Positions 7,087 through 56,526 of a DNA stretch of 64,000 nt are shown in pieces. Position numbers and translations under genes: made by a program. The stretch lies in the sequence record PX393110.1; one strand, 5' to 3'. Origin of the DNA: a phage. The notes beneath the pieces are model-generated. The model worked only from the letters and a program-made list of their open reading frames with translations. It did no database searches and was not told where the DNA came from. Positions within the stretch are counted from its first letter, which is position 1. Each line of letters opens with the position of its first letter.

Positions 7087-7141
7087 CAGACTCAGTATCC
7101 GTAAGTGTAATTTGACTTTCCATGATTAAGGACTAATTTTC

Positions 7142-28736: not shown

Positions 28737-28743
28737 CAGTGCC

Positions 28744-28761
28744 CCCGCTGCTTGGCGGGGT
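28744..28761 (+). terminator. GC-rich hairpin after tailspike 1 (no U-tract)
   Basis: CCCCGC-TGCTTG-GCGGGG stem-loop 8 nt after the stop codon. Confidence 0.3.
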
Positions 28762-28951
28762 CCCACCAACCGGAGGTCAACTACACTTATGAATAAGGTA
28801 TCCATAAAGTTTAGTAGCCTGATTTATGGCAGGTTCACGCTATCTACAAAAAGTGAAAATCATAGTCATAATGTAGGTGATTATGATTTTAACCAAGAGG
28901 AACTTACTCTCTGGTTTGGGAATTAGTATATAATATATTATAGGTGAATAA

Positions 28952-31936
28952 ATGTCTTATAATCCGATCTTAGAAGGATCAACCTGGCCGGAGACTATTC
29001 GTCGCTTAGAAAAGACGGATAGGGCGGAAGGTGGGCCACTAGTTACTAATTCTGAGGATGAACCAGTATCTGGACATATTAATCATCCAATAACTCAGTT
29101 AGCTACCAGAACTTCCATTTTAAAAAAGTATAATTTATCGATAATTAATAACACTAAAGAACAGTGGAAATTATTACTCGGTGACTTAGGACTAACTCTT
29201 GTTGGTACTTTTGAAGAAGGCGCTACTACTAACAGCAAGACTGATGCTGTTTGGCATATTGCTGGTGGTCAGTGTTACGTGTGGGGTGGTTTACTCCCTA
29301 AGACTGTATATGCTAACTCCACACCGCTAACTACTGGTGGTATCTCTGCTGATGCTTGGGTTAGTATTGGTGATGCCGCACTGCGAGGGCAAATATCAGA
29401 CCCGGACGGTGCGACAAAATACCCTGAATTGCAGATTGCTAGATGGCGTGACACTTTTGACCCTCGCGGTTGGGGAGCTAAAGGTGATGGATTAGTTGAT
29501 GATACTGTGGCTCTTAATAATCTGTTAAACGCTGCGCCAGTGGGTCAGAAAATTAATGGTAACGGTAGAACCTATAAAGTATCTGTGCTTCCAGATATTA
29601 GCCGATTCGTCAACACTCGTTTCGTTTATGAGCGTATTCCTGGCCAGACGCTTTATTATGTGTCTGACGAGTTTGTTCAGGGTGAGTTAATTAAAATAAC
29701 CGACACGCCTTATTACAATGCCTGGCCGCAGGATAAAGCGTTCGTTTACGACGATGTTATTTACTGTCCGTTCATGGCTAGCGATCGGCACGGGGTTAGC
29801 AGGCTGCATGTATCCTGGGTTCGCTCAGGTGATGACGGACAGACCTGGACGACCCCGGAGTGGCTAACCGACCTGCACCCTAATTACCCGACAGTTAACT
29901 ATCACTGTATGAGTATGGGTGTGATGCGCAACCGCCTATTTGCGATGATTGAAACCCGTACATTGGCATCTAACGCACTGGTGACTTGCGAGTTATGGGA
30001 TCGGCCCATGTCCCGTAACTACCATCCGACAGGTGGCATCACAAAAGCCGCCAACCAGCCTGTGGCTGTAATTACCATCCCTGAACACGGTCTTTTTGCT
30101 GGGGATTTTGTTAACTTCTCAAACTCTGGGGTGACTGGCGTTTCAGGGAATATGACTGTAACTTCAGTTATTGACCGCAACACGTTTACAGTTACCACGC
30201 CAAATCAACAAGCATTCGACCAAAATAACTCTACCAGCCGCTGGCATATGGGGACATCGTTCCATCAGTCACCATGGCGTAAAACCAGCCTTGGATTGAT
30301 CCCCATGGTTACCGAGGTTCACAGTTTTACCGCCATCAATAACGATTCATTCATGATGGGATATCACCAGGGTGATGTTGCTCCGCGTGAAGTCGGTATG
30401 TTGTATTTTCCGGATGCGTTCAACAATCCTGGGCTTTATCAGAAACGGCATATTCCTGCTGAATATGAGCCAGATGCGGCAGAACCCTGCGTTAAGTATT
30501 TTGACGGTGTTCTTTATGTTGTAACCCGTGGAACCAGGTCTGATCGTCTTGGTAGTTCTCTGCATCGCAGTAGCGACCTGGGGATTACCTGGCAATCACT
30601 GAGGTTTCCGAATAACGTCCACCACTCTACCCTGCCATTCGCTAAGGTAGGAAACGAACTGATTCTTTTCGGCACCGAACGCGCCGACAACGAGTGGGAA
30701 GCAAACGCACCGGATCAACGATATTTCAGTTCTTACCCACGGACGTTCTACACGAGAGTGAACCTCGACACCTGGAACCTGAATAATACTCAGTGGGTAA
30801 ATATCACTGATCAGATTTATCAGGGTGGTATTGTTAACTCTGGCGTCGGTGTCGGATCGGTCGTCGTGAAAGATAGTTATATCTATTACATGTTCGGTGG
30901 GGAAGACCATCTGAACCCATGGACATATGGAGATAACTTAGAGAAAGACCCATTCAAATCAGACGGTCATCCCTCAGATTTGTATTGTTACAAAATGCAG
31001 ATCGGTCCAGACAATCGTGTTTCTCGTGATTTCAGGTACGGTGCTGTACCTGACAGAGCGGTTCCAGTGTTTTTTGATACGAATGGAATTCGCACTGTTC
31101 CTGCGCCTATGGAGTTCACCGGTGATTTAGGGTTAGGTCATGTGACCATTAGAGCCAGCACCAGTAATAACGTTCGCTCTGAAGTTTTAATGGAAGGTGA
31201 GTATGGGTTTATTGGGAAATCTGTACCTACTAATAACCCAGCAGGACAGCGCACCATATTTTGCGGTGGCGAAGGAACCAGTTCTTCTACTGGTGCACAG
31301 ATTACGCTTTATGGTGCTAATAACACAGCTTCTCGCAGGATAGTTTACAACGGAGCTGAGCATCTGTTCCAGACTGCTGACGTTAAGCCTTATAACGATA
31401 ACGCGATTGCGCTCGGTGGGCCTAGCAACCGATTCACTACTGCATACCTCGGAAGCAACCCTATTGTTACTTCTAACGGGGAGAAGAAAACAGAGCCGGT
31501 ATTTTTTGACGATGCTTTTTTAGATGCTTGGGGCGACGTTCATTACATCATGTACCAGTGGTTGGATTCTGTACACTTGAAAGGAAATGACGCTAGAATT
31601 CATTTTGGCGTAATTGCTCAGCAGATCCGCGATGTATTCATTGCTCACGGTCTGATGGATGAGAATAGCACGGATTGCCGCTATGCCGTTCTGTGTTACG
31701 ACAAATATCCTCGCATGACAGACATGGTGTTCTCTCACAATGAAATCGTTGAACACACTGACGAGGAGGGTAATGTAACTACCACGGAAGAACCTGTATA
31801 CACCGAGGTGGTTATTCACGAAGAGGGTGAGGAGTGGGGTGTGCGGCCTGATGGAATTTTCTTTGCTGAGGCAGCATTCCAGAGAAGAAGACTGGAGAGA
31901 ATCGAAGCCAGACTTTCCGATCTTGAAAAGAAATAG
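28952..31936 (+). CDS. sialidase-like tailspike (endosialidase-like) with C-terminal intramolecular chaperone domain
   Basis: 994 aa; two Asp-box motifs (SGDDGQTW, SSDLGITW); GAKGDG motif; C-terminal S74-like chaperone region; distinct codon usage. Confidence 0.7.
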   Translation: MSYNPILEGSTWPETIRRLEKTDRAEGGPLVTNSEDEPVSGHINHPITQLATRTSILKKYNLSIINNTKEQWKLLLGDLGLTLVGTFEEGATTNSKTDAVWHIAGGQCYVWGGLLPKTVYANSTPLTTGGISADAWVSIGDAALRGQISDPDGATKYPELQIARWRDTFDPRGWGAKGDGLVDDTVALNNLLNAAPVGQKINGNGRTYKVSVLPDISRFVNTRFVYERIPGQTLYYVSDEFVQGELIKITDTPYYNAWPQDKAFVYDDVIYCPFMASDRHGVSRLHVSWVRSGDDGQTWTTPEWLTDLHPNYPTVNYHCMSMGVMRNRLFAMIETRTLASNALVTCELWDRPMSRNYHPTGGITKAANQPVAVITIPEHGLFAGDFVNFSNSGVTGVSGNMTVTSVIDRNTFTVTTPNQQAFDQNNSTSRWHMGTSFHQSPWRKTSLGLIPMVTEVHSFTAINNDSFMMGYHQGDVAPREVGMLYFPDAFNNPGLYQKRHIPAEYEPDAAEPCVKYFDGVLYVVTRGTRSDRLGSSLHRSSDLGITWQSLRFPNNVHHSTLPFAKVGNELILFGTERADNEWEANAPDQRYFSSYPRTFYTRVNLDTWNLNNTQWVNITDQIYQGGIVNSGVGVGSVVVKDSYIYYMFGGEDHLNPWTYGDNLEKDPFKSDGHPSDLYCYKMQIGPDNRVSRDFRYGAVPDRAVPVFFDTNGIRTVPAPMEFTGDLGLGHVTIRASTSNNVRSEVLMEGEYGFIGKSVPTNNPAGQRTIFCGGEGTSSSTGAQITLYGANNTASRRIVYNGAEHLFQTADVKPYNDNAIALGGPSNRFTTAYLGSNPIVTSNGEKKTEPVFFDDAFLDAWGDVHYIMYQWLDSVHLKGNDARIHFGVIAQQIRDVFIAHGLMDENSTDCRYAVLCYDKYPRMTDMVFSHNEIVEHTDEEGNVTTTEEPVYTEVVIHEEGEEWGVRPDGIFFAEAAFQRRRLERIEARLSDLEKK

Positions 31937-32056
31937 TAAATAAAGCTTTTTTACCGTAGGTAGGGGGGCTTCAATTTAAGATTTAACTTAAACCAATTAC
32001 CACTCTAAAGTTACTAAGTATTTGTACATCATGTAATATTTTTATGGAGATCACCA

Positions 32057-34678
32057 ATGGGCGGTCGTTCTAGGTTATTTAGCGAACTGGGCGGAGCTCC
32101 TCTTAATACTTATCAGCATGATAATCAGACTCTCGATATTCGCGAGTTAGAGAGTCAGCAGAAAGTATTAGACGAGACTCTTGCCGAAACAATCGGCGAT
32201 GTTAGCGAACTACAGCAGACTGCTGGACAGTCTATGTATATCCTCGGTAACTACGCTGCTGGAATGGTGATCGAGAACGACCGCCAGTACGTCAGACATG
32301 AGAATCTGCTGTACTACTGGACTGGTCCTGTACCGTTTACCACTACTGGTAACTTCTACGAAGAATCCTACTGGACTGGTGGGGTGCAGAGTGGTATCGA
32401 ATGGAGCTACGAAGTACAGGAAGATGGTGAGTTTGAGTTTGAAGTACCATACTCCTTCACCAGCGTACGCCTGTTCGTGGGTGGCGCTCGCCTTACTCGC
32501 GTAGAAGATTACACTATCGATGTGATTAATCGCAAGATCACTCTGACTAAGATTAAACTGTCGAAGGGCGTCCTGGTAACTGCCGAGCTGAATTCTCGTG
32601 ATGCTCTCAGCGTTACCCAGGATCGCATCGATAGCCTTACCAGAGAGATCTCAGAGAAAGTAGGCTTTGTTAACTACAAACTTACTGATCTGTCGGAAGG
32701 TCAGAGCCTTACCCTAACTACCAGAGTTCAGACTGTAAGCTTCTCACTAAATGGGGAGTATTACAAATGGGATGGTGTTCTTCCTAAAGTCGTTAACTAT
32801 GGAGATCCGGAACCAGCTCAATCTGAGCAGGGTACTGGTAAGTGGATTCCTGTAGGTTCTGGCGCCTTGAAATCAGAACTGGGCAAAGTCAGCGACACTA
32901 CTGGAGCGGTTCTTGTAGCTCTACCACAAGGCGGTAACGTGGCGAACGGTATTCGCTATGTAACTCCCGAAATGGCTGGTGCTAAAGGAGATGGTACCAC
33001 TGATGACACCACAGCCGTTCGTAACGTTGTAGCTCTCGCCAAATTAACTGGTCTTAAAATCACCGGTGGAGCGAACTATAAGATCTCGAATGCTTCAATC
33101 GATATCTCTGGTACTGTCATTGAGAACCTACGTCTTAAAGGAAGTGGGTCTAGCTCTATACTGCTAGTTAATGGCAATACTGCCATATCTAATCTAACCC
33201 TAAATAGGGTAGGTATTAGACACACTAACGGTATCTTAAACCTGGACAAATTTGAGATCAATGACTGTAGTGCTACTGCGGCTATTTTAAGCCTTCAGCT
33301 AACATCACCTGGACAAATATTTCTCACCAATGGTGTTATGCGTCGTTGTAATTACGGTTACCTTCGTCAGGGATCTCCAGCTTCTTCCCAGCCGCTGACT
33401 ACTTCATTACTTCGGAATTTACAATTCTTCGATATGAAGGGTGATCCAATCGAGATCAATCTGGCGATAGCTGATACCAACACTACTATCGATCAAATAA
33501 CCATAGATAACGTGGACTCCACAGCTACCGGGAATACTAACTGGGGTATTGCTATAGGCTTAGCTGGGATGGGTAACTACTCACCCACTGCCGCAGACTC
33601 AGAGTACATGTCTGATGTAACCATAAGTAATATTAAGATTACCGGAGCCAAACAGTGTCTGCACTTGGAGAAATGCAGAAACATTAGAATCAGAAATATC
33701 GACATACATCCGGATTCCACTAAGTCAACCGGAGTTGGGTTGGATACTGGTGGTTTCATAGCTTATGGATGTAAAGAGATATACGTGGATGGTGTAACTG
33801 GGTCTCCAACCAACGGAACGGAAGATATGATTCGTTTCGCTTGGGGATCTGTTAACAATGCGTTTACCTTCGCTCATCGAAATGTGCACTTAAGAAACGT
33901 CAATGTAACAGGTACTGTTAAAGTGGAGGTTAGCTGTTCTGATACCCTAGCTTCGACTGTAGAGATGAGAAATATCAATGCAACAACGATATCTCTCCAA
34001 GGCATGGCGTCTGAATACCAGCTGTCAGATTGGTCCGCTGAGAAGATGGTGTTGGATTTCAGATATGTTAGCGGAGATGCTAGAGATAATTACCGTAGAA
34101 ATGCGTGGTCAATTGCTACCATCAGTAATTTGAAATGCCTGAATTCTAACACTGGCGCTCCTGAGGTTACTGTACAGAACATCACTGTGGATACATTGGA
34201 AGTTTCTGGGTGTAACTTCCCTATCCAGAAGACTTTAACTGCTACCCATTGGAGAGGAACTCCTGCATGGCGGCAGAATGGTATTATTTACCACTCTAAG
34301 ACCGGAACTCCTTATGGCATGGCTCTTCTTGCTGGTGACACTATCGTTGCTAGTGACGGAACTATGTTCACGGTGACCTCCCCTGGAGCTCTGTTCTACT
34401 CAAACGAAACTGTTGCGGCCGCTACTGCTGGGTCTAACGCTATTCGTTCTAAAACTAACCTTAACTGGACTGGTCAGTATTATAAGACTGCTGGGTGTAA
34501 GGTTAAAATAGCAGGAGGTGGAGGTGCTGACGGCTCTGATTACATCGGTACTATTGTCCGCAGTGGTTATATTAACAGTGGTAATTACTACTTTGATGTT
34601 TACCCACCACTTCAGTCTAACGTACCTGATGGCGCAGTATTAACTTCCGTAGAAGTACCAGCCTTTAAAACAGTTTAA
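32057..34678 (+). CDS. tailspike protein (pectate-lyase-like beta-helix)
   Basis: 873 aa; GAKGDGTTDDTTAV motif typical of pectate_lyase_3-type tailspikes; internal YKWDGVLPK module. Confidence 0.65.
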   Translation: MGGRSRLFSELGGAPLNTYQHDNQTLDIRELESQQKVLDETLAETIGDVSELQQTAGQSMYILGNYAAGMVIENDRQYVRHENLLYYWTGPVPFTTTGNFYEESYWTGGVQSGIEWSYEVQEDGEFEFEVPYSFTSVRLFVGGARLTRVEDYTIDVINRKITLTKIKLSKGVLVTAELNSRDALSVTQDRIDSLTREISEKVGFVNYKLTDLSEGQSLTLTTRVQTVSFSLNGEYYKWDGVLPKVVNYGDPEPAQSEQGTGKWIPVGSGALKSELGKVSDTTGAVLVALPQGGNVANGIRYVTPEMAGAKGDGTTDDTTAVRNVVALAKLTGLKITGGANYKISNASIDISGTVIENLRLKGSGSSSILLVNGNTAISNLTLNRVGIRHTNGILNLDKFEINDCSATAAILSLQLTSPGQIFLTNGVMRRCNYGYLRQGSPASSQPLTTSLLRNLQFFDMKGDPIEINLAIADTNTTIDQITIDNVDSTATGNTNWGIAIGLAGMGNYSPTAADSEYMSDVTISNIKITGAKQCLHLEKCRNIRIRNIDIHPDSTKSTGVGLDTGGFIAYGCKEIYVDGVTGSPTNGTEDMIRFAWGSVNNAFTFAHRNVHLRNVNVTGTVKVEVSCSDTLASTVEMRNINATTISLQGMASEYQLSDWSAEKMVLDFRYVSGDARDNYRRNAWSIATISNLKCLNSNTGAPEVTVQNITVDTLEVSGCNFPIQKTLTATHWRGTPAWRQNGIIYHSKTGTPYGMALLAGDTIVASDGTMFTVTSPGALFYSNETVAAATAGSNAIRSKTNLNWTGQYYKTAGCKVKIAGGGGADGSDYIGTIVRSGYINSGNYYFDVYPPLQSNVPDGAVLTSVEVPAFKTV

Positions 34679-34702
34679 TAGATTAAACTGAGGAGATTAT
34701 TG

Positions 34703-36154
34703 ATGTCCACCCAATTGCCAGATAGTCTGCAGCCAAGCAGCCTTAAGTATAAAGGTGACTATGCGGCTGGTATTTACCTTAACGGAAACCACTGCATCCT
34801 TCGCTTTGTACGCACTGATGGTAAGAAGGTGTTGGTTAAGTGGGTGGGGGAAGTCCCCCACACCACCGACGGCGAGACTCCGTATACCGATACCGACCAA
34901 ACTACTCTTAAAGCTGGTTACGAGCTCTTCTCCCAGACGAATGCAGTAGACTTCATTATTTCAATGTTCAGTTCCTCCACATCCTGGCGCTATATCGGCC
35001 AGGTTAACTCTGTGGAAGATCTGAAGACTATCACTCCTAAGGATGGCGATCGAGTGATAGTTAAAGGCTACTTCGGGGAAGGTACTCCCGGAGGTGGTGA
35101 GTTCCGAGTTAAGACTACCAATGACTCTATTCCTTCGGACAGTAAGGATGTAGTCAATGGTTGGGTACGAGTTCGTCGTAGCAAGGAGTATCACGCTACC
35201 GAGTTTGGTGCTGTTCCTGATAAGTTAACTGACTCTACTGGTCAGGTTCAGGATATGCTCACTACTATCACCACTGGTCTGGCTATAATTGATCCTGGTG
35301 TTAAGTATACCCTAGCTAACTTAACTATCAAGCCTGGCGTCCAGATTCTGGATATGTCTGGATGGGACGGTAGTTCATGGACGGCTGCAGTGAGATTCAT
35401 CAGTAACTCTACTGATGGGTTGATAATCTCTTCTGCATCCAATGCTAACCTTAACCTCAACAGTAACAACGGGTTAGCCAGAGCTAAGGTATCTTACAGC
35501 GTAAGCGGAACTAAGATCTGGGAATCGGGTATGAGCGATGACTCTAACCGAGACTGGCATGTTCTTCGAGGATCTGAGTCTCGTTACCGTGTGGTATCTG
35601 CTTCCCAGGCTCACGCATGGAACAGAGATACCATAGTTGAAGGTGTCGATTACCACTACGGTAAGAGAGCATCTGAGAATCATGTTCTTCGCTACGATGC
35701 AGTGAGTACTGGCTATGATATCATTCATACCTATTACCACGGTACCACTCTCACCTCTAAGATAACCCATAAAGGCGATGGATCAGTAATCCTGACCCAG
35801 AATGGTAAGGATACCATCAAGATAGTAGATGGTGTAATGACTGGTGCCCTGAAGAAGATCATCACGTCTACAGCTAACGTAACTCTTACTGCAGCTGATA
35901 CTGGTGCTATTTGCACTACTGATGGTGCCACTTCTTCGGTTACCATTACCCTGCCAGTAGCTGTTCCTGGTATGACCTATGATGTACTCGTAGGTGCCAA
36001 CTACAGCGTATCAGTGAAAACTGGCGGTACAGATCTCTTCCGTAATGGGAACGCTACTGTTTCTAACTCGGATAAGGGATCCTGGTTACGCTTAGTTTGC
36101 GCTATCTCCGGTTACTGGGAGATGGATACTGTTCAGGGTACCTGGGCAAGTTAA
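34703..36154 (+). CDS. tail fiber/tailspike protein
   Basis: ATG at 34703 after GAGGAG RBS; 483 aa; beta-rich, anchor-like N-terminus. Confidence 0.55.
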   Translation: MSTQLPDSLQPSSLKYKGDYAAGIYLNGNHCILRFVRTDGKKVLVKWVGEVPHTTDGETPYTDTDQTTLKAGYELFSQTNAVDFIISMFSSSTSWRYIGQVNSVEDLKTITPKDGDRVIVKGYFGEGTPGGGEFRVKTTNDSIPSDSKDVVNGWVRVRRSKEYHATEFGAVPDKLTDSTGQVQDMLTTITTGLAIIDPGVKYTLANLTIKPGVQILDMSGWDGSSWTAAVRFISNSTDGLIISSASNANLNLNSNNGLARAKVSYSVSGTKIWESGMSDDSNRDWHVLRGSESRYRVVSASQAHAWNRDTIVEGVDYHYGKRASENHVLRYDAVSTGYDIIHTYYHGTTLTSKITHKGDGSVILTQNGKDTIKIVDGVMTGALKKIITSTANVTLTAADTGAICTTDGATSSVTITLPVAVPGMTYDVLVGANYSVSVKTGGTDLFRNGNATVSNSDKGSWLRLVCAISGYWEMDTVQGTWAS

Positions 36155-36170
36155 TTAAACGGAGACTACT

Positions 36171-36992
36171 ATGTCCTTTATGGTATTGGCCGAAAGTGGC
36201 CACATAGCTTTAGCTAAAACGGTGCATGATGCAAATCTGCACTTTGCATGGGGCACCATCCCAGATGCTGTAGCTGCTCCAGAAACCATGTCTGCCTCCG
36301 CGGTAGATGGTGGTACTCTGGATCCTGCCACGTATACTTATGTGGTTACTGCAGCCAACAAATTCGGTGAAACCACCGCATCCATGGCTGCTACTGCTAC
36401 TATCGTTGCTTCGGCTTCTCAGCAGTCTATTCAGTTAAACTGGGGTGCATCTGCGAATGCTGAGAAATACATCATCTATCGCCAGGGCACCAACTCCTAT
36501 GATAAAATTGGTGAGTCTACTTCTAATACTTTTACTGATAACGGCAGCACTACTCCAGATAGCTCGGTTAATCCTCCTACGACGAACACTACATTCCCGT
36601 CTGCATGGACTAAACCAGCACCTAACCCGGACCCGTCGCTACCTGATATGTATGCTGAAGTCGGACGCCGTAAGATCCTCACCAAGGAATATGTGAAACA
36701 GGATCCTAATGGTACCATCGAGACTTCAGAAGGAAAGTGGTCTATCTCCGATAAGCCAACTAAGCATCTGTATCTGCATGTTCAGTTTAACTATACTGAT
36801 GCTCCAGATGACATGATCTACCAGTTCGCTATCTTCATAGGGACTGTACCTACTGATGGTAATGAGAATGCTCTTTACCTCACCCCAGATATGATTAAGG
36901 AAAAGGGAGAGATGCTCGGAATTGAGAACCATACCCTGATTATTCGTGAGTCCACTACCCGCGAAGGTCATTCCGTCATCCTCACGTTCTAA
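36171..36992 (+). CDS. tail fiber-associated hypothetical protein
   Basis: 273 aa; S/T/P-rich linker; lies within the fiber array. Confidence 0.45.
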   Translation: MSFMVLAESGHIALAKTVHDANLHFAWGTIPDAVAAPETMSASAVDGGTLDPATYTYVVTAANKFGETTASMAATATIVASASQQSIQLNWGASANAEKYIIYRQGTNSYDKIGESTSNTFTDNGSTTPDSSVNPPTTNTTFPSAWTKPAPNPDPSLPDMYAEVGRRKILTKEYVKQDPNGTIETSEGKWSISDKPTKHLYLHVQFNYTDAPDDMIYQFAIFIGTVPTDGNENALYLTPDMIKEKGEMLGIENHTLIIRESTTREGHSVILTF

Positions 36993-37003
36993 CGGAGTAA
37001 TAA

Positions 37004-40000
37004 ATGGCAACTTTACCGTCTGATTACTTTAACAGATTCGCGGCTAAGAAGAACTATGCCAAGCATCTGTTTATCGCGGACAGACCGCTCCAGAGCTCGG
37101 AGCTAAATGAAATTCAGGATCAGCAGCTCAATAACGTCTCTACACTGTCCGGCTTCTTGGTCGGTGATGGTGCCATTACTGATGGGGCGGATATTTCCGC
37201 TCTTGGGGACGGTGTGATCTCTATCACTGAGGGTACGTTAATCTATGCCGGTATGGCTATGAACGTACCCGCTGTTACGGATGCATCGTTCCCGACTGCT
37301 GGAGAGGCTGTTTTAGGTGTATCTATCTCTGATAAGGTAATCACCTATCTCGATGATCCTGAGCTTCTCATGCAGTATCAGAACTCTCCGAGCTATGGTT
37401 CAGCTGGTGCTGACCGTCTCCAGAAGGTGACTACTTGGCTGTTAGCCGATGATGTCCCAGAGGGAGATACCTTCTTCCCAGTATTCTACTTCAAGAATGG
37501 CGTACTGGTAAAAACCACTAAGTCTCGTAACGATCTCGACCAGTTCTCTGGTCTTCTGGGTCGCTACGACTCTGATACCCATGGTAACTACGTACTGGAT
37601 GGCCTTACTCTGTCCTATGCAGGTATCGATGGTTCCACCCAGCAGATCATGTTGAACATGGCTGCGGGCAAGGCTCGTGTACTTGGCAACGAAGCACTGT
37701 TCGCCTATGAAAGTACCGTGCGTCTGGACCCTATCAACGATACCGGTAACGTAGCTTCCGAGCCGTATGTGTTTACAGCAGGTACTTATACCTATCAATT
37801 GCGCTACTCTGTAATTGATCAGGTAACTGCTGTTTCTGGTACTAAGCAGGTAACTCGTACGGTAACTCATGGCTCCGCAACGGGTTCGTCTGACTTACTT
37901 CCGGATACTCCTGTTCTGCAGATTATTTCTGTGCAGCAGGGTGGTACTGTCTACGTTAAAGGTAGTGACTATGTACAGAACGGGGACTCTGTAGACTGGT
38001 CACCTACTGGTAACGAACCATCTCCTGGTTCTACTTATCAGGTTACGTACCAGTACATTGACCAGTTCATCCCGACCTGGAACGATACCTCTATCACTAT
38101 TTCCACCAGTGATGCTCTGGTATCTGGGTCTACGTTCTACGTAACCTACTCTTACTTCCTGTCTCGCTATGACCGTGTATCTATCGATGCCTCCGGCGCG
38201 GTGCAGATTACTAAGGGTATTCCAGCAATCCTGGCGAATGCTCAGTTGCCAGGTACTTCCGCTACGTTGCTGTCCATTGCAACTATTCGTCTGACTAAAG
38301 GTCAGGATCCGGTCATCAACAATGATCGTATCGAAGTAGTTACTTATAATGAGCTGAAAGATCTGATGTCTCTGGTAAGCGACATGCAGTACAACATCGC
38401 CCAGCTTTCGCTTCGTGATGAAACTCGCTCTACCGATCCGACTACGACTAAGAAAGGTGTGGTAGTTGACTCTCTGCTTAACGGTAACATGCGTGATGAT
38501 GGTCTTACCAACAACGCCATCGTTGATGAAGGTCAGCTGTTCATCGGAGCATCTTTCTCTCGTCAGTCTAGCCTGGCTCCTGATGGTCTTATGTTATCGT
38601 TTACCGATACCGTAATTCAGTCTCAGGAATTCCGTACCAAGGATACTCGCATCAACCCGTATGCTGGTTCCGGCCAGGTACCTCAGGCGATGATCTCTGT
38701 GTCTCCAGCTAAGATCGATACTCGTGGCTTCTGGTCGTACTTCCATGGTGGATTCCTGCCAGTGGATACTACGATTACGATTAAGCTGTCTGGGTATGCT
38801 GCTAATGAGCAGATTGATCTTACGTTCCGTAACCTCGCAGTGGTTACCTTGGTTGCGGATGACAACGGTACAGCACAGTATGCTCATATGCTATCTGGTG
38901 GCTTGATTAACGGTACGTATCAGTATGTTGCTACCGGTAAGACTACTAAGGCTGTGACTCGCGGTACAGTAACCATCTACAACTCCGGTAGGGTCGACTA
39001 CGGTCAGAACTGGACTGGTGGTGCTGTGCCATGGGGTTACGACCCAGTAGCTCAGACTTTCACTATCCAGGCTACTCGTGATATTAACGCAGTGTCTATC
39101 TACCTAACTGAACTGCCTACTAACACGCTCCAGATTAAACTGGTTCCGACTAAGGTCGGTATTCCGGACTCTACCCAGCTTTACGGCTTCGGTGAAGTTC
39201 CGGCTAATAAATGCGTGCTGGGATGGAACAAGATCAATCTTCGTTATCCAGTAACGGTAACTGGCGGTACTGAGTACTCCATCATCGTCGCTACGGCTAA
39301 CTATCAGGGTAAGGTGGCTACAGCTAAGATTAACGGGTACGATACCGATAAGAAACAGTATGTAGTGAATCAGCCAGCGCAGGGTGTACTGTTAACTTCT
39401 GCGAACGAATCTACCTGGTCTCCGGTTCAGGATGAAGACTTGATGTATCGTCTCCATGCCACTAACTATGGCTCTACCCGTACCGTGAACTTAGGTTCTG
39501 TAACAGTAGCTAGCAATACCAACAGTCTGTCACTGACTGCTGATATTGAGACTCCGGCAAATACCTCCGTGAGATTCTACCTCACTAACGGTACTGATAA
39601 CATTAACCTCAACGTTAACTCTGAAACGTACACTGAGAACTTCTCTGGTACTTTCAGTCTGATGGCAGAGTTTAATACTGGTGATCCTACTGTATCTCCG
39701 AAGGTCTTCGGTGGCGTCATCTTCCGTTCTGGCACTACTGATACTCCTGGGGTATATACCCAGCGTCAGTTCAGTATTCCTAACGGTAACGTTACTCCGG
39801 TAACGCTTAACGTCATCCTGGATCAGTATGTGCCATCTGGTGCCAGCGTAACTGTTCAGTACCAGAATGGTAGTAACTGGGTAGCCTTGACTGGGGGCAC
39901 CGGAACCGCTCTGGGAGATGGGTGGTATACCGTACCTTACAAACTGTCAGGAGTCAATGTGGCTAATACCCGCATCCGTATCATCCTGTCTCTGTCTAAC

Positions 40001-40048
40001 CCAGTTAACCGTCCGTTCGTTAAGAACGTTCGCGCATACTTTAGCTAA
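37004..40048 (+). CDS. large tail fiber/baseplate attachment protein
   Basis: 1014 aa; long beta-rich G/T/S/V-rich protein at end of fiber array. Confidence 0.55.
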   Translation: MATLPSDYFNRFAAKKNYAKHLFIADRPLQSSELNEIQDQQLNNVSTLSGFLVGDGAITDGADISALGDGVISITEGTLIYAGMAMNVPAVTDASFPTAGEAVLGVSISDKVITYLDDPELLMQYQNSPSYGSAGADRLQKVTTWLLADDVPEGDTFFPVFYFKNGVLVKTTKSRNDLDQFSGLLGRYDSDTHGNYVLDGLTLSYAGIDGSTQQIMLNMAAGKARVLGNEALFAYESTVRLDPINDTGNVASEPYVFTAGTYTYQLRYSVIDQVTAVSGTKQVTRTVTHGSATGSSDLLPDTPVLQIISVQQGGTVYVKGSDYVQNGDSVDWSPTGNEPSPGSTYQVTYQYIDQFIPTWNDTSITISTSDALVSGSTFYVTYSYFLSRYDRVSIDASGAVQITKGIPAILANAQLPGTSATLLSIATIRLTKGQDPVINNDRIEVVTYNELKDLMSLVSDMQYNIAQLSLRDETRSTDPTTTKKGVVVDSLLNGNMRDDGLTNNAIVDEGQLFIGASFSRQSSLAPDGLMLSFTDTVIQSQEFRTKDTRINPYAGSGQVPQAMISVSPAKIDTRGFWSYFHGGFLPVDTTITIKLSGYAANEQIDLTFRNLAVVTLVADDNGTAQYAHMLSGGLINGTYQYVATGKTTKAVTRGTVTIYNSGRVDYGQNWTGGAVPWGYDPVAQTFTIQATRDINAVSIYLTELPTNTLQIKLVPTKVGIPDSTQLYGFGEVPANKCVLGWNKINLRYPVTVTGGTEYSIIVATANYQGKVATAKINGYDTDKKQYVVNQPAQGVLLTSANESTWSPVQDEDLMYRLHATNYGSTRTVNLGSVTVASNTNSLSLTADIETPANTSVRFYLTNGTDNINLNVNSETYTENFSGTFSLMAEFNTGDPTVSPKVFGGVIFRSGTTDTPGVYTQRQFSIPNGNVTPVTLNVILDQYVPSGASVTVQYQNGSNWVALTGGTGTALGDGWYTVPYKLSGVNVANTRIRIILSLSNPVNRPFVKNVRAYFS

Positions 40049-40258: not shown

Positions 40259-40906
40259 ATGGGCGTTACACTTGACCAGCTGAAGAAGTTCCTCCCAACG
40301 ACTTCAACGGAAGTACTGGAAAAGCTACTGCCTGCCATTAATACTACTATCGAGCGTTACGGTATCAATACCAATCGTCGTCTGCGCTATTTTATGGCGC
40401 AGACTGCTTTTGAAACTCGGGACTACACTAAATTTGTGGAGTCCCTGTATTATACCACTGCGTCTCGTCTGGTAGATGTATGGCCGAGCAGATTTACTCT
40501 TCGTGGCGAGCCTGGGAAGCTTAATGCGACTGCTTATATACGCGATTCAGAGAAATTGGCTAATCAGGTATATGCTAATCGCATGGGTAACGGGAATCCG
40601 GCCAGTGGTGATGGGTACAAGTACATTGGTCGTGGCGCGATGCATCTAACTGGCAAAGCAAACTATCGTGAAGCCTCATTGGATATCTTCGGCGATGACC
40701 GTTTGGTAGAAGACCCAGAGTTAGTCGCGACGGATTTCGAGACGATCATGCTTACTGCAGGATGGTTCTGGGATAAAAATAAATTAAATCAATTAGCAGA
40801 TCAGGACGCATTCACCAAAGTAACCCAGAAGATAAATGGGTCTGCTGCGACCGTACCTGACCGACTGCCTGTACTACGCAGAGCAAATCAGACTTTAACT
40901 CTTTAA
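40259..40906 (+). CDS. endolysin, GH19 chitinase-like lysozyme
   Basis: 215 aa; FMAQTAFETRDY...GDGYKYIGRGAMHLTGKANY motif. Confidence 0.7.
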   Translation: MGVTLDQLKKFLPTTSTEVLEKLLPAINTTIERYGINTNRRLRYFMAQTAFETRDYTKFVESLYYTTASRLVDVWPSRFTLRGEPGKLNATAYIRDSEKLANQVYANRMGNGNPASGDGYKYIGRGAMHLTGKANYREASLDIFGDDRLVEDPELVATDFETIMLTAGWFWDKNKLNQLADQDAFTKVTQKINGSAATVPDRLPVLRRANQTLTL

Positions 40907-40920
40907 TATGGTGATCAATA

Positions 40921-41337
40921 ATGGACAATATCCTGGATGTAATTGATGGCACCAAGATCGATGATTACATCGCTCTTGCACTAGCCATCATCGGCTTCGC
41001 ATCAGTGCTGGTGCAAGCTCTGGAGAAGATCGCTAAGATCACTCCTAATACTAAAGACGACGAATACATTGGGGTAATTAAGAAATACCTCGGTTATGCA
41101 TCGTCCATCTTAAACTTCGTCGCTCTGAACTTGCCTAAATCAGCTGCCAGGGTAGATAAGAAAGCTGCCGCTCAGGATGAGCAGAAAGTGCAGACCATGG
41201 ATAAAGCTAAGCAGGTTCTTTCCGACGTAGTCCAAACTCAGGATGATCCGCACCTAGTGAGTAAGGCTACCCAGGCTATTGATGCCCTTGATTACGGTAA
41301 GTCTCTGATCAAAAATCCAGAGGGTAAAAAGGAGTAA
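40921..41337 (+). CDS. putative holin / membrane protein
   Basis: 138 aa; hydrophobic helix IALALAIIGFASVLV; directly downstream of endolysin. Confidence 0.4.
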   Translation: MDNILDVIDGTKIDDYIALALAIIGFASVLVQALEKIAKITPNTKDDEYIGVIKKYLGYASSILNFVALNLPKSAARVDKKAAAQDEQKVQTMDKAKQVLSDVVQTQDDPHLVSKATQAIDALDYGKSLIKNPEGKKE

Positions 41338-41340
41338 GGT

Positions 41341-41571
41341 ATGAAAGCTCTTACTCTTATTCTTCAGCTTATTACCCTACTCGTATCTGCTATGCAGACT
41401 CGCTCTCGGGAGAAGAAAGATGAAGAAATTAAAAATGACCCTACTGGTGCTTGGGAGTCTAAGTTTGGTAAGCTGCAACAGCCTACCGGTACAGATGCAG
41501 ACGCCGAAGGTAAGGTGCGACCGTCCACCGATAGCAGCGATAGCGGAAAAAGACGGGATCAGGATTCCTAA
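41341..41571 (+). CDS. putative i-spanin-like protein (N-terminal TM)
   Basis: 76 aa; N-terminal hydrophobic segment; contains embedded lipoprotein ORF in another frame. Confidence 0.35.
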   Translation: MKALTLILQLITLLVSAMQTRSREKKDEEIKNDPTGAWESKFGKLQQPTGTDADAEGKVRPSTDSSDSGKRRDQDS

Positions 41572-41629
41572 CGCTGAATTAGCTAAATTGGTATCTTATA
41601 TAGATTGCCTAGAGAGCAATCAGAAGTGA
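41420..41629 (+). CDS. putative o-spanin outer-membrane lipoprotein
   Basis: signal peptide with lipobox LVSC; 69 aa; overlaps upstream gene in another frame. Confidence 0.5.
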   Translation: MKKLKMTLLVLGSLSLVSCNSLPVQMQTPKVRCDRPPIAAIAEKDGIRIPNAELAKLVSYIDCLESNQK

Positions 41630-41639
41630 GGAATCTTGT

Positions 41640-41972
41640 ATGCGCGAGAGGGAAGAGTCTGAGTTCGGTGGACACCAACTCGATAGGCTAGCGAGACTTG
41701 AATCTAACCAGAAGTTTCAGGGAGTAATCCTTGATCAACTTATGGAGTCTTCTCGTAAGCAGACGGAGATATTAGCGGATATCCGTGAGCTAGTCGTTGC
41801 ACAGAATTTCATGTCTAAGAAGATTTCTGACCTTGAAGATGAGCAGGATGATCTAAGGAAGGAGATTAAGGAAGTAAATGACAAGATTAAATTCTGGAGT
41901 GGTGCGTTAGCAATTATTAGTGTACTGGTAGGATTGTTTAACGACGCCATCATCGGCATCTTTAAGCACTAA
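41640..41972 (+). CDS. coiled-coil protein with C-terminal transmembrane anchor
   Basis: 110 aa; heptad-rich helix then hydrophobic ALAIISVLVGLF. Confidence 0.45.
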   Translation: MREREESEFGGHQLDRLARLESNQKFQGVILDQLMESSRKQTEILADIRELVVAQNFMSKKISDLEDEQDDLRKEIKEVNDKIKFWSGALAIISVLVGLFNDAIIGIFKH

Positions 41973-42013
41973 ATAAATGGGACTCACTCGTGATAGAGTG
42001 AGTCCCATTTTTG
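41971..42013. terminator. bidirectional rho-independent terminator at convergence of plus and minus transcription
   Basis: 11-bp perfect stem GGGACTCACTC/GAGTGAGTCCC, flanked by A-rich on the left and T-run on the right. Confidence 0.8.
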
Positions 42014-42024
42014 TGTAGATTAAT

Positions 42025-42267
42025 TTAGTTATGACGATTCCACATCTCGACCATAAGCCCCAGCTCACGATCAGCAACTGCTTCATCTTCCATATCTAAA
42101 TCAGTAACCACTTCATGGTCGTCCCATTTACAGTTAGGACACTCCAGATGTAAGTGGTTATTCTCGTCAAGACGTAGAGTGGGGTGCTCTTTACAGTTAT
42201 AGCATACCTTCACTATCCCTGCCTTACACACTCCCTCTAGTTTGATGTTTAATTTCATCAAGTCCAT
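42025..42267 (-). CDS. zinc-ribbon protein
   Basis: 80 aa; CxxC ... CxxC (CYNC, CPNC). Confidence 0.5.
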   Translation of the reverse strand: MDLMKLNIKLEGVCKAGIVKVCYNCKEHPTLRLDENNHLHLECPNCKWDDHEVVTDLDMEDEAVADRELGLMVEMWNRHN

Positions 42268-42821
42268 CAGATACTCCGTACAAATAATTCCCGGAATGGT
42301 TTAATTACCTTCTCTACTTCAGCATCCATCTTGGTTTCTGACTTACCAGATAAGATATTGAAAAGAGATACACGAACGGCCTCCCGAACCGACTCTTGAG
42401 TCATATCGACCTTGCCTTCATACGCTGAATAAATAGTCTGGCAGTTGCTAAGTAAAAATACTAGCTCTACCGCCTGATGAACGACTTCTTGATACTGCTG
42501 GTCGCGCTCGATAGCTTCGTTCATCTTAGGAGTGTGTGGATTATCGCAGATTTCCCAGGTCTTTACGATATCAGGATTAGCGAATACATCGGACGATTTA
42601 ATACCTATCGACACTTTAAGTAGACGGTGCTTAATACCGTTATTGGTAATAGTCAGATCGTGCATAGCATGACGAAGAGCTTGCTCGAATTCAAAGCTAG
42701 ACTCTCGGACTACTATATCATAGCTCTCAGCCTGGTCGATAGGACGGACTGTTAGAACGAGTACTGCTGTACCTCCCAACATACCGATTAGGTTGTCTAT
42801 ATCCATATTACTCAAAGTCAT
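42267..42821 (-). CDS. hypothetical protein
   Basis: 184 aa ORF, overlapping start/stop with neighbours. Confidence 0.45.
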   Translation of the reverse strand: MTLSNMDIDNLIGMLGGTAVLVLTVRPIDQAESYDIVVRESSFEFEQALRHAMHDLTITNNGIKHRLLKVSIGIKSSDVFANPDIVKTWEICDNPHTPKMNEAIERDQQYQEVVHQAVELVFLLSNCQTIYSAYEGKVDMTQESVREAVRVSLFNILSGKSETKMDAEVEKVIKPFRELFVRSI

Positions 42822-43180
42822 TTCTTTACCTTCTTATAGAACTTGTGGTCGCCTATTCTGGCTGTCATTCTATAGCCCTTCCAGTTAGGCCTAACCTTTA
42901 CATTATGAAAGTGAGTAGCCCCGAATGTGGGATCTTCACTGTATTTAACTCTTGCCGCAATATGAATAGCAGATGCCTTAGATTTAGGATCTTTCATATT
43001 CTGGTAAGAGATGTGACGGTACCACGGAAAGGTATTCCTGTTTTTAACTACCTTACATGGGCTTATACCGTATTTCTTCGCTCGGTTGAGTACCACGTGG
43101 GCTACAGCTAACTGCCCACGTTCCGACTCTCCCCTGGCCTCATAGTAGACGACCATAGCTACGCAATCGGCAGAAGTCAT
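42818..43180 (-). CDS. SleB-like cell wall hydrolase
   Basis: VVYYEARGESERGQLAVAHVVLNR matches hydrolase_2/SleB signature. Confidence 0.6.
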   Translation of the reverse strand: MTSADCVAMVVYYEARGESERGQLAVAHVVLNRAKKYGISPCKVVKNRNTFPWYRHISYQNMKDPKSKASAIHIAARVKYSEDPTFGATHFHNVKVRPNWKGYRMTARIGDHKFYKKVKK

Positions 43181-43211: not shown

Positions 43212-43589
43212 TTACAGAGATTTCTCTGTGGTGGGCTCTTCCAGTAGCCCACCCAGAGCTGAGAATACCATGTTCACCGAGTCGTCAATCTCTTTGATTA
43301 ACGATTGGAGATTATTGGTATCTGCGACCATGCCTCTGACCTGGTCGCTAATATCAGCCGCACCCAACTTAGTACCTTCACCAGCCAGACTGTCGATTAA
43401 ACGAACTTTGGCCTTATTTAACTGGTCGATTTTATCCTGGATAGCAGCTTTACGCTGATTACATGCCAGAACTATGATTTGTTTTAAATCAACCTGGCTA
43501 GCATAGCTCTCGCGGAAGCGCTTTACCAGATTAGCTTCGTCGATTACCGGCAGAGCCTCTGGATGAGGTCCGTTGAATGCGTTGTACAT
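43212..43589 (-). CDS. hypothetical protein
   Basis: 125 aa ORF. Confidence 0.45.
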   Translation of the reverse strand: MYNAFNGPHPEALPVIDEANLVKRFRESYASQVDLKQIIVLACNQRKAAIQDKIDQLNKAKVRLIDSLAGEGTKLGAADISDQVRGMVADTNNLQSLIKEIDDSVNMVFSALGGLLEEPTTEKSL

Positions 43590-43601: not shown

Positions 43602-44225
43602 TTAGAAACGATCGCGACCTATGATTGGTGCGACTGGTTTAAAGTCAGTCTGGTCGTAACCTTTGTAAAGGTCGTAGCCACCACCAGCAACCTCAGTAAA
43701 GTAAATCTGACCGATGCGCATGTTAGAACGCAGTCGGATAGTGTTAGGGCTTAGGTTAACAATCTCTAGAGTAAATGCTCCCTTGAATCCAAAGTCCCCG
43801 AAACCTGCACTGACATGGCTCAGTATTCCCAGACGACCCATAGTGCTGCGACCGTCGTAATGCTGACAGAATGCCACACCACGGTCTACAGTGCTGTTAC
43901 GGTATCGTGGGTCATAATGCTCGAACCACTTCTCAGGCAACATGGTAGTACAGTCGATACGTTCAGATGCTGAGCCTAAGATGAACTCCCCAGGTTTAAG
44001 ATCGTAGTATAGTGCCTCTACCTCGCGATACTCCGGAAGAGTACATGGTTTATAGGGATCTACTACATGGCCATCAGGCATCTTTTGAGGAACCAGGAAG
44101 AACGGAGCTAAGCGTACATCTACACTATTCTGTCCGATTCGTGGTTCCTGATTGTCCAGATAACTGTGATAGGTCCATAATCCTTGAGTAATTGCCTGCT
44201 CAATATAAGATTTACCAAGGATCAT
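43602..44225 (-). CDS. dCTP deaminase-like protein (dUTPase superfamily)
   Basis: 207 aa; size and motif layout of Dcd family. Confidence 0.55.
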   Translation of the reverse strand: MILGKSYIEQAITQGLWTYHSYLDNQEPRIGQNSVDVRLAPFFLVPQKMPDGHVVDPYKPCTLPEYREVEALYYDLKPGEFILGSASERIDCTTMLPEKWFEHYDPRYRNSTVDRGVAFCQHYDGRSTMGRLGILSHVSAGFGDFGFKGAFTLEIVNLSPNTIRLRSNMRIGQIYFTEVAGGGYDLYKGYDQTDFKPVAPIIGRDRF

Positions 44226-44427
44226 TACGGATGCTCCAGCATGTTCTTAACAGATTCTTCATCTGTAGCTTCTACAGTAGCATTATTATTATTATTATTA
44301 TTATTATTCTTGAATGTGCCCCAGATATCATCAGACACGATCATAGTCTTGGGAGCTAAGTGCTCCGAACGAATAACCGTAATCTGGTTACGATTAAGAT
44401 CCTTAGTTAGTTGCTCAATATCCATCA
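44225..44427 (-). CDS. small protein with poly-Asn tract
   Basis: ATG at 44425-44427 with GAGGA RBS; contains 9 consecutive Asn from (ATT)9. Confidence 0.4.
44282..44308. repeat. (ATT)9 trinucleotide microsatellite
   Basis: 27 nt perfect ATT repeat read directly. Confidence 0.95.
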
Positions 44428-44455
44428 TATTCCTCGGTTCTATGGTAGAATAACA

Positions 44456-44479
44456 TTGACCTCTCCGCAAAGAGGTCAA
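44456..44479 (-). terminator. hairpin downstream of dUTPase gene
   Basis: 9-bp stem TTGACCTCT/AGAGGTCAA; U-tract weak. Confidence 0.35.
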
Positions 44480-44510
44480 TAGTAATTACCGTAGTCTAAC
44501 TACCCCAGGA

Positions 44511-44981
44511 TTACTTAATCCCGGAATGGCCAAACCCACCGTCGCCACGTTCAGAAACATCAGAGAATTTATCCACAAGCTGGAGCTCTGGATGGATAAC
44601 GGGAAGAAACACCATTTGAGCGATACGGTCGCCGTGGTTAATAACGAAAGATTCGTTACTACGGTTCCACACAGACACCATCAGTTCTCCTTGATAGCCG
44701 GAGTCGATAAGACCAACCAAGTTACCCAGTACGATGCCATTTTTATGGCCGAGGCCGCTGCGGGGAAGAATCACAGAAGCGATGTTCGGATCGCCGATGT
44801 TGATCGCTAGACCGGTAGGGACCAGGATAGTTTCGCCAGGATTTACAGCGATTTTATCGATTTCGTCAGTCTTAATCATCGCACGAAGATCAAGACCAGC
44901 ATCACCAGCTTTAGCGTATTTCGGTAACTCCAGAGAGTCGTCCCAGTTAATAGTTTTCTTTACTTGAACTACGGTCATCAT
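44511..44981 (-). CDS. dut: dUTP diphosphatase
   Basis: 156 aa; [39 protein letters not shown] motifs of trimeric dUTPases. Confidence 0.85.
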
Positions 44982-45358
44982 GATGCCCTTTTGTACTGTT
45001 TAATGAATGCTGCGCAGATGCTGGTGAAGAGGTGATCTTTGACTCGATGCTCTTCCGGCAACCGTGAATATGGAACCATACACGGGTGCGTCTTAGCTGC
45101 GAGATCTTTGATTTCTCCATACTTCCAGCCCTGCTCCTTTTTAGTTTTAACCCAGAATTCATGGGACTCTTCTGGGCTGATACGGTTATTGTGTAAGCAG
45201 TTATACGCTCCATCAATAGCCGACTGTTTTATTTCATCGGATGTTGCTTCCCAGCTTAATTGGGTGAAGTCTCCGATAGAATGGCAGTATGCACGATTAG
45301 CTTCGTGACACACCTTAGCCACCATCAATACGATTTCTTCTCGGGTCATATGAGACAT
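44978..45358 (-). CDS. RyR-domain protein
   Basis: [20 protein letters not shown]...[20 protein letters not shown] resembles RyR repeat. Confidence 0.5.
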
Positions 45359-55896: not shown

Positions 55897-56526
55897 TTAT
55901 TTAGGGATCCATGAATACTTTAAATTCCATGGCCTAGGGGTACCATGGAAACAAACTACTGCAACCCCATTAGGCACCGACCCGTTTCCGGTAGACCTGT
56001 GACAGTAATGCTCCTGGTCAGGACCTACTACTGATACCTTGTAGGAACAGAATTTACCTGGGTAGAGATCTTGTATGCGAGGTACTCCATTAAAGAATGG
56101 GCAGATAAACTCCTGATCACCACCTACAGAGTGATTAGCCATGAATCTATCTGGACTAACTATCCAAGCATTCCAGATGCGCTCAGCTAAGATAGGCTCA
56201 ACACGCATCACGCTACTGTTAACCATCCCAGTATGGTACCAGTCTCGGAGAATAGTTGATTCGTCACAGTTCAGCAGGAATGTGATATCGTCGATAATTG
56301 CTGTATCTAAATCGAAGAACACGAATGGCTCCTGGATAGTGAATAGCTCCATCTTACTCCACCAGCCAGGATAATCATGCTTCATAGGTATCCACTCAAC
56401 TCCTTCGATAGGCTCTTTAGAGATACATGCATATCTTGTACCTTCTGGGAGTTGTCTACCTACCCATTTAACGTGATCTTCTGTGAAGTCCTTACCCTTA
56501 CGAAATACCGTAACCACTAGCGACAT
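55897..56526 (-). CDS. putative glycosyltransferase (DxD-containing)
   Basis: 209 aa; FDLDTAIIDD possible DxD motif; in glycosyltransferase cluster. Confidence 0.4.
   Translation of the reverse strand: MSLVVTVFRKGKDFTEDHVKWVGRQLPEGTRYACISKEPIEGVEWIPMKHDYPGWWSKMELFTIQEPFVFFDLDTAIIDDITFLLNCDESTILRDWYHTGMVNSSVMRVEPILAERIWNAWIVSPDRFMANHSVGGDQEFICPFFNGVPRIQDLYPGKFCSYKVSVVGPDQEHYCHRSTGNGSVPNGVAVVCFHGTPRPWNLKYSWIPK

Follow-up and report, generated by a model that had tools for sequence, protein, structure and literature searches.

Why would a phage with an apparently complete set of lysis genes encode a further predicted peptidoglycan-cleaving enzyme among its genes for nucleotide metabolism, and at what stage of infection could such an enzyme reach the cell wall? 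The question is raised by a short open reading frame (ORF) on the minus strand of a 64,000-nucleotide stretch of phage DNA (sequence record PX393110.1), the whole of which is referred to here as the window. An earlier note on this DNA had singled out the ORF as encoding a SleB-like cell wall hydrolase, separate from the lysis genes, and had suggested that its early expression could serve superinfection exclusion or remodeling of the host wall. Profile searches, structure modeling, comparison with related phages and examination of the surrounding genes were used to evaluate these ideas.

The 120-residue ORF was found at exactly the place that had been given for it, 42818 - 43180 on the minus strand, and with both signature motifs, YYEARGE at residues 12 - 18 and AVAHVVLNR at residues 25 - 33. 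It has an ATG start, and its product begins MTSADCVAMVVYYEARGESERGQLAVAHVVLNR and has a predicted pI of 10.1. A TAA codon in frame 18 nt 5' of the ATG means that translation cannot begin farther upstream and so make a longer product, such as one with a signal peptide. The Hydrolase_2 profile search that had been proposed as a check was positive over the full profile (PF07486, positions 1 - 100 of 100; E=2.5e-20, 73.4 bits against a cutoff of 27), and the protein also matched PHROG 938, 'endolysin', at 1e-22, both matches being far above chance. An AlphaFold2 model (pLDDT 92, pTM 0.86) searched with Foldseek against the PDB gave significant matches only to the SleB catalytic domains 4FET and 4F55 (TM 0.73 - 0.78 over 119 columns, 25% identity), and 38 phage SleB-domain proteins in BFVD matched at E<=1e-3. 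Profile, predicted fold and a retained catalytic glutamate thus agree in identifying the product as a SleB-type (Hydrolase_2) single-domain protein, a predicted peptidoglycan-cleaving enzyme.

SleB is a lytic transglycosylase that cuts the glycan strands of peptidoglycan by means of a single catalytic glutamate. Glu14 of the phage protein falls opposite the Glu in the SleB sequence 'YGESRGE', which is presumably the residue described as catalytic, Glu157 in B. cereus and Glu151 in B. anthracis. The catalytic Glu is essential in SleB (PMC12331253; PMC11148199), and the equivalent Glu is needed by a SleB-like type VI secretion (T6SS) effector for periplasmic toxicity in E. coli (PMC11148199). 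Glu14 and His112 are invariant in all 158 aligned homologues, and every position conserved in at least 90% of that alignment is kept in the window protein. Departures from the consensus are found in the QFSW motif (Thr50 and Pro52) and at one aromatic position (Lys68). Cys6 and Cys42 are 97% conserved among the aligned homologues; a disulfide between them is possible, and the pair therefore hints at an extracytoplasmic site of action. The protein has a basic C-terminal tail, and a high pI with such a tail is a known feature of Hydrolase_2 lysins from Gram-negative phages (PMC8223927).

The likeness to SleB is one of fold and not of orthology. For the NCBIfam SleB equivalog, TIGR02869, the score was 34.3 bits where 236.5 are required, and the match was confined to the C-terminal half of the model (90 - 201). 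The signal peptide and the N-terminal peptidoglycan-binding domain of SleB are absent, leaving the catalytic domain alone, and no ypeB-like gene follows the ORF, the protein encoded downstream (184 residues) having no Pfam hit, PepSY included.

The plus strand of the window carries the structural module, with the lysis cassette at its end. The cassette begins with a soluble GH19 protein (40259 - 40906; PF00182 at 8.2e-9, phrog_181 at 6.5e-60, no transmembrane segment) that appears to be the primary endolysin and whose counterparts in phages IME392 and EP_H11 are annotated as lysis protein or endolysin. Directly after it come a 138-residue membrane protein (40921 - 41337) with a TM-like segment at about residues 15 - 38, a candidate holin, and an overlapping spanin-like pair (41341 - 41629) with a weak match to phrog_3198, 'Rz-like spanin'. 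The first member of the pair has 76 residues and a hydrophobic N-terminus (41341 - 41571); the second is a 69-residue predicted lipoprotein with the lipobox LVSC, encoded out of frame at 41420 - 41629, so that it starts inside the first and ends beyond it. The last cassette gene (41640 - 41972) encodes a 110-residue coiled-coil protein that seems to be tail-anchored by a C-terminal TM segment. A second GH19 domain, 31% identical to that of the cassette endolysin, forms the C-terminal part of a 973-residue tail-module protein (16097 - 19018, plus strand; phrog_181 at 2.7e-38 for residues 742 - 941, PF00182 at 2.4e-9), which is probably a virion-associated wall-piercing enzyme. Together with the SleB-type protein, three muralytic domains are predicted in the window.

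The cassette and a minus-strand operon converge on a bidirectional intrinsic terminator at 41972 - 42012, a 13-bp perfect stem (ATGGGACTCACTC/GAGTGAGTCCCAT) with an A-run before it and a T-run after it. The SleB-type gene belongs to this operon and not to the cassette with its holin and spanin genes. The earlier description of the gene as separate from the lysis cassette is therefore right as to strand and operon but overstated as to distance, since it lies only about 0.85 kb past the cassette end; likewise, the convergent terminator is real, but the gene does not come right after it, because two further ORFs intervene. Nor is the gene placed as a virion hydrolase would be: the ORF is free-standing, lies among nucleotide-metabolism genes and is not fused to any structural protein.

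In order of transcription the minus-strand operon encodes a RyR-domain protein, a dUTPase (44511 - 44981; PF00692 at 1.9e-35, phrog_135), an 84-residue ORF product, a dCTP deaminase (43602 - 44225; PF22769 at 9.5e-24, phrog_1663), an acidic 125-residue protein (43212 - 43589) with only a sub-threshold Pfam hit and a position conserved in the metagenomic relative L007, the SleB-type protein, the 184-residue protein (42267 - 42821) and an acidic 80-residue protein with a CxxC...CxxC, zinc-ribbon-like arrangement (42025 - 42267) that is conserved in EP_H11 and L007. The SleB-type gene is thus third from the end of a nucleotide-metabolism operon. Its TGA is overlapped by the ATG of the 184-residue gene (ATGA), and the two are probably translationally coupled. 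The 184-residue protein is restricted to this clade, a search of 5.8 billion proteins having yielded just 3 homologues, and it matched no family in Pfam, PHROGs, NCBIfam or PADLOC; its AlphaFold2 model (pLDDT 74) had no significant fold match in the PDB, and hydropathy disclosed no TM segment. It was considered as a YpeB-like partner, an immunity protein, a holin or another membrane protein, and no family, fold or TM signal spoke for any of these.

Comparison with relatives showed that the ORF is a real gene under purifying selection. With Escherichia phage vB_EcoM_IME392 the window shares about 95% identity, and with EP_H11 92%; both phages have myovirus-type genomes of 111 - 116 kb. The SleB-type gene has 99.4 - 99.7% nucleotide identity in these two phages and its neighbors 83 - 99%, making it the most conserved gene in its neighborhood, and it is not called in the IME392 record and is 'hypothetical' in EP_H11. 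The L007 counterpart (protein P0002) has 80 - 82% protein identity, and in L007 the gene order is the same on both sides of the gene, the convergent lysis cassette included. Between the window and L007 the gene has a dN/dS of 0.115 at dS of about 1, which, together with the retained invariant residues, rules out a pseudogene or decayed domain. Recent horizontal acquisition was also considered; the GC content of the gene (0.446, against 0.456 for the window) and the synteny kept in a relative at dS of about 1 argue against it.

With the domain and the gene established on these grounds, what the protein would do depends largely on whether and when it could reach the periplasm. A hydropathy heuristic, applied to the window proteins in general, revealed neither a signal peptide nor a SAR domain nor a TM segment in the SleB-type protein (maximum 19-residue hydropathy 0.50), whose N-terminus, MTSADCVAMVVYYEARGE, leads straight into helix 1 of the domain. 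It is, in other words, a predicted muralytic domain of the soluble-endolysin kind and not an exported hydrolase of the type of T5.083 or CB7_83. Its clade relatives, P0002 among them, likewise lack an export signal. In other lineages a signal is the more usual state: an N-terminal signal or anchor is present in the homologues from Spc35, JG004, KaOmega, naam and Cr30, and export signals were seen in those of T5-like phages, JG004, Cr30, Certrevirus and Vequintavirus, the one from Ab1-TPeters being the exception among the other-lineage homologues whose N-termini were compared. The signal-less state is nevertheless not unique: of the 157 cluster representatives closest to the protein, about 44 are bare domains too. 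For the window protein, the absence of an export signal leaves no evident route to the periplasm before a holin permeabilizes the membrane.

The homologues form a large family. The protein has homologues in 1,238 phage records, mostly of Escherichia, Salmonella, Pseudomonas and Klebsiella phages, and 9,260 cluster representatives (50% identity) match it at E<=1e-3; Hydrolase_2 is among the dominant catalytic domains of Gram-negative phage lysins (PMC8223927). In T5, Pakpunavirus and Nankokuvirus a hydrolase of this kind is a second enzyme encoded among DNA-metabolism genes, in Phapecoctavirus a SleB-type second enzyme lies away from the lysis genes, in the Acinetobacter phage Ab1-TPeters a bare-domain version adjoins a dCTP deaminase gene, and the neighborhood of the Cr30 homologue is similar to that of the window gene. 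The neighbors of the homologues in VEcB, Paride and Arash are mostly hypothetical proteins. In Vequintavirinae a signal-bearing Hydrolase_2 protein is the presumed endolysin, and the recombinant signal-bearing homologue CB7_83 was toxic in E. coli (PMC7344957). A SleB-domain 'endolysin' far from the holin had already been remarked upon in T5-like Salmonella phages (PMC11180984), so that second SleB-type hydrolases are a well-populated and previously noted class of which the window gene is one more member. No published experimental test of the role of such second enzymes in large Gram-negative phages was found.

The early expression assumed for the gene in the earlier note is conjectural. A scan for general sigma-70-like sites gave promoter matches no commoner than in shuffled sequence (40 - 46 kb and 44 - 64 kb). 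PAK_P3 gp151, 35% identical to the window protein, is the only homologue with RNA-seq data; it is transcribed already in the early sample, at a level similar early and late (log2FC 0.62, p=0.28). In phage T4 the lysozyme gene e, which is distant on the map from the holin gene t, has both early and late transcripts, and with this precedent neither map position nor early transcription is an argument against a role in lysis.

The reading that we favor, and to which about even confidence is given, is that the SleB-type protein is an accessory or back-up endolysin that depends on the holin. Without an export signal, the protein would do no harm while it builds up in the cytoplasm, at whatever time its gene is transcribed, would gain access to the wall only once the holin permeabilizes the inner membrane, and there would work beside the GH19 endolysin, in part redundantly, by cutting glycan strands. 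We infer its enzymatic specificity, its dependence on the holin and its contribution to lysis. The signal-less Hydrolase_2 proteins encoded directly after the holin in Chaseviridae count in favor of an accessory endolysin, as does the want of any evident earlier route to the wall, which weighs against early remodeling and superinfection exclusion. The full-profile Hydrolase_2 match, the SleB fold, the invariant Glu14 and His112, the conserved Cys pair, the high pI, the existence of other bare-domain homologues and the purifying selection were counted in its favor as well. Several points lie on the other side. The cassette is complete and its GH19 endolysin apparently intact, so a second glycan-cleaving enzyme looks redundant; placement in a nucleotide-metabolism operon recurs in unrelated phages, which may point to a role apart from the cassette; and most homologues from other lineages have export signals of their own and are thus holin-independent. 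The departures in the QFSW motif and at Lys68 were also counted against this reading.

The two roles that had been suggested for the protein, superinfection exclusion and early wall remodeling, would both need a periplasmic enzyme, and neither agrees well with a protein devoid of signal peptide, SAR domain and TM segment. Remodeling is the better founded of the two and may be put more broadly, as an early or middle enzyme, possibly an auxiliary metabolic one, that nicks or turns over host peptidoglycan independently of the cassette, for instance for precursor release or loosening of the sacculus. The idea is already in the literature for PAK_P3 gp151, proposed as an auxiliary wall-degrading enzyme that would explain the accumulation of cell-wall precursors (PMC4933390). 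It draws further on the early-sample transcription of gp151, on the place of the window gene in a DNA- and nucleotide-metabolism operon, on similar neighborhoods in T5, JG004, PAK_P3, Cr30 and Ab1-TPeters, and on the many homologues whose Sec signals or anchors would bring them to the periplasm ahead of lysis. The copy in the window and P0002, however, have no signal, cannot be extended upstream and have no evident route to the wall ahead of the holin, and the toxicity of CB7_83 in E. coli means that uncontrolled early activity would risk premature lysis. Wall remodeling is accordingly plausible for the exported homologues and weak for the signal-less copy, for which we consider it rather unlikely. 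As a superinfection-exclusion factor the protein is commended only by belonging to an operon that may be early; it lacks an export signal, PADLOC gave no match, and we know of no superinfection-exclusion system that uses a muralytic enzyme, the Sp protein of T4 acting oppositely, by inhibition of the incoming lysozyme. We regard exclusion as highly improbable. Hardly less improbable is a virion-packaged or ejected enzyme that would aid genome entry. BFVD does contain phage proteins longer than 1000 residues into which a SleB-fold domain is fused, but the window gene does not belong to the structural module, a 973-residue GH19 protein is already present in the tail module, and the PA5oct homologue was absent from virions by mass spectrometry.

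If the predicted cytoplasmic location of the protein is taken at face value, its function might instead be non-lytic and carried out where the protein is made, either on MurNAc-containing precursors or recycled anhydro-muropeptides, or non-catalytically with the coupled 184-residue protein. The overlap of stop and start codons with that clade-specific gene, the QFSW deviations and a conservation stronger than that of any neighbor would fit such a function. Yet the hallmark residues are kept, including the catalytic Glu and a Cys pair read here as of periplasmic type, no precedent for a cytoplasmic substrate was found in the Hydrolase_2 family, and the 184-residue partner has no recognizable fold or family, and we think a cytoplasmic function unlikely. 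A more general version, in which the protein has a pre-lysis, non-lysis role and rewires host wall metabolism, whether in the cytoplasm on MurNAc precursors and recycled muropeptides or at the wall by way of an unrecognized, partner-assisted route, is in our estimate decidedly unlikely. Were it true, an undescribed middle-phase function common to unrelated virulent phages would lie behind the repeated occurrence of their SleB-type genes beside those for deaminase, ligase and phosphoesterase.

The domain call, the context and the gain in annotation for the window gene leave current understanding unchanged, and the role of second SleB-type enzymes is a question general to the class and not specific to this locus. 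Many large virulent phages with Gram-negative hosts, among them T5-like, PAK_P1/KPP10-like, Phapecoctavirus and IME392-group phages, carry a SleB-type hydrolase beyond their recognized endolysin. The copy in the window, minimal, signal-less and near a complete cassette, offers a clean case for asking whether these second enzymes are redundant endolysins, and a highly basic predicted muralytic domain of only 120 residues is also a possible enzybiotic module.

Among known systems, Bacillus SleB has the same fold and the same catalytic Glu as the window protein at 25% identity, but it has in addition a PG_binding_1 domain and the partner YpeB. In its architecture the window protein is closer to CwlJ, which is also single-domain. 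The muramic-delta-lactam cortex that is the substrate of SleB and CwlJ is absent from the phage host. The T6SS effector T6EC3 has a SleB fold and attacks Gram-negative peptidoglycan from the periplasm with need of the equivalent Glu (PMC11148199); it is, however, delivered by the T6SS and has a cognate immunity protein in the periplasm, and its likeness to the window protein is one of fold and of the equivalent Glu.

The phage systems are nearer. In T5-like phages, T5.083 and SPC35_0073 are Hydrolase_2 proteins with about 39 - 41% identity to the window protein, and their genes are likewise apart from those for holin and primary endolysin; the gene of T5.083 has tRNA and stable-RNA genes as neighbors in a region with annotated promoters, which we take to be the early region of T5. 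These proteins have 149 residues with a cleavable-looking Sec signal, whereas the window protein is a bare domain of 120, and the primary endolysin is an M15 peptidase in T5-like phages and a GH19 enzyme in the window. In Pakpunavirus and Nankokuvirus, the Hydrolase_2 proteins JG004 PJG4_029, PaP1 g029 and PAK_P3 gp151 (35 - 39% identity) are encoded beside a dCMP deaminase and a DNA ligase, as the window protein is in a nucleotide-metabolism operon, and they are additional to an experimentally verified endolysin, Pae87/g072, of the Muramidase family; they differ from the window protein in their length of 186 - 187 residues and in an N-terminal hydrophobic anchor that it does not have. The proteins of Chaseviridae, Myduc gp36 and Bp10 gp35, are only about 30% identical to the window protein, have about 180 residues with an extra N-terminal region, and are encoded directly after the holin and annotated as endolysin, whereas the window gene is outside the cassette. 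They are nevertheless, like the window protein, Hydrolase_2 proteins without a signal (the Bp10 and Myduc records read 'No TMD - endolysin (not SAR)'), and they are taken to depend on the holin.

A 973-aa tail-module protein (16097-19018, plus strand), the gene for which is preceded by that of the sheath (12356-14155), carries a C-terminal GH19 domain at about residues 742-941, bringing to three the muralytic domains encoded in the window. This domain has 31% identity to the GH19 cassette endolysin and probably acts as a wall-piercing enzyme borne on a tape-measure or tail protein. Within the lysis cassette itself, an overlapping, out-of-frame gene pair (41341-41629, plus strand) resembles i/o-spanin genes in an overlapped, partly embedded arrangement. 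The first product, of 76 aa, has a hydrophobic N-terminus; the second is a 69-aa lipoprotein (lipobox LVSC) whose gene starts within the first and ends beyond it. Downstream of the pair comes a gene (41640-41972, plus strand) whose 110-aa coiled-coil product ends in a transmembrane segment, and all three genes are without annotation in the IME392 record.

Four consecutive large genes (25827-40048, plus strand) encode tailspike- or tail-fiber-like products of 969, 994, 873 and 1014 aa, the third with a family match to "colanic acid degradation" and the fourth containing DUF4815. Together with a BW3TFN "tail fiber network" protein, also present, they suggest a branched, multi-receptor-binding adsorption apparatus.

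In the minus-strand operon that houses the SleB-type gene, an 84-aa ORF (44225-44479, minus strand; GC a low 0.376), in which an (AAT)n run encodes eight consecutive Asn residues, is the least conserved gene, at 83-89% nucleotide identity in close relatives; a 12-bp hairpin (44481-44454) lies just upstream, and in a metagenomic relative with the same gene order (L007) a different 68-aa ORF occupies the position. EP_H11 has an additional 216-aa ORF between the dCTP deaminase and the 125-aa gene (6599-7249 of its locus, L002), which is absent from the window and from IME392. A 126-aa ryanodine-receptor (RyR) domain protein (44978-45358, minus strand; PF02026, 5.8e-13), adjoining the dUTPase, is kept in L007. 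The dCTP deaminase and dUTPase occur together with glycosyltransferase-like genes (43602-44981 and 55897-57485, minus strand), and IME392 was among the phages with a YerA41-like DNA polymerase checked for 5-hmdU/thymidine-hypermodification genes (2025; PMC12686479). Phages of this group may have modified DNA.

SleB-type genes of unrelated virulent phages (the loci of JG004, PAK_P3, Ab1-TPeters, Cr30, Arash and T5) repeatedly adjoin genes for dCMP/dCTP deaminase, DNA ligase, phosphoesterase, exonuclease or helicase, not holins. Structure matches in BFVD further place the SleB fold as an internal domain in phage proteins exceeding 1000 aa, such as that of Agrobacterium phage Atu_ph03; Delftia phage PhiW-14 and the jumbo phage Goslar have it too. 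Phages thus use the domain both on its own and within very large proteins, the latter possibly virion-borne.
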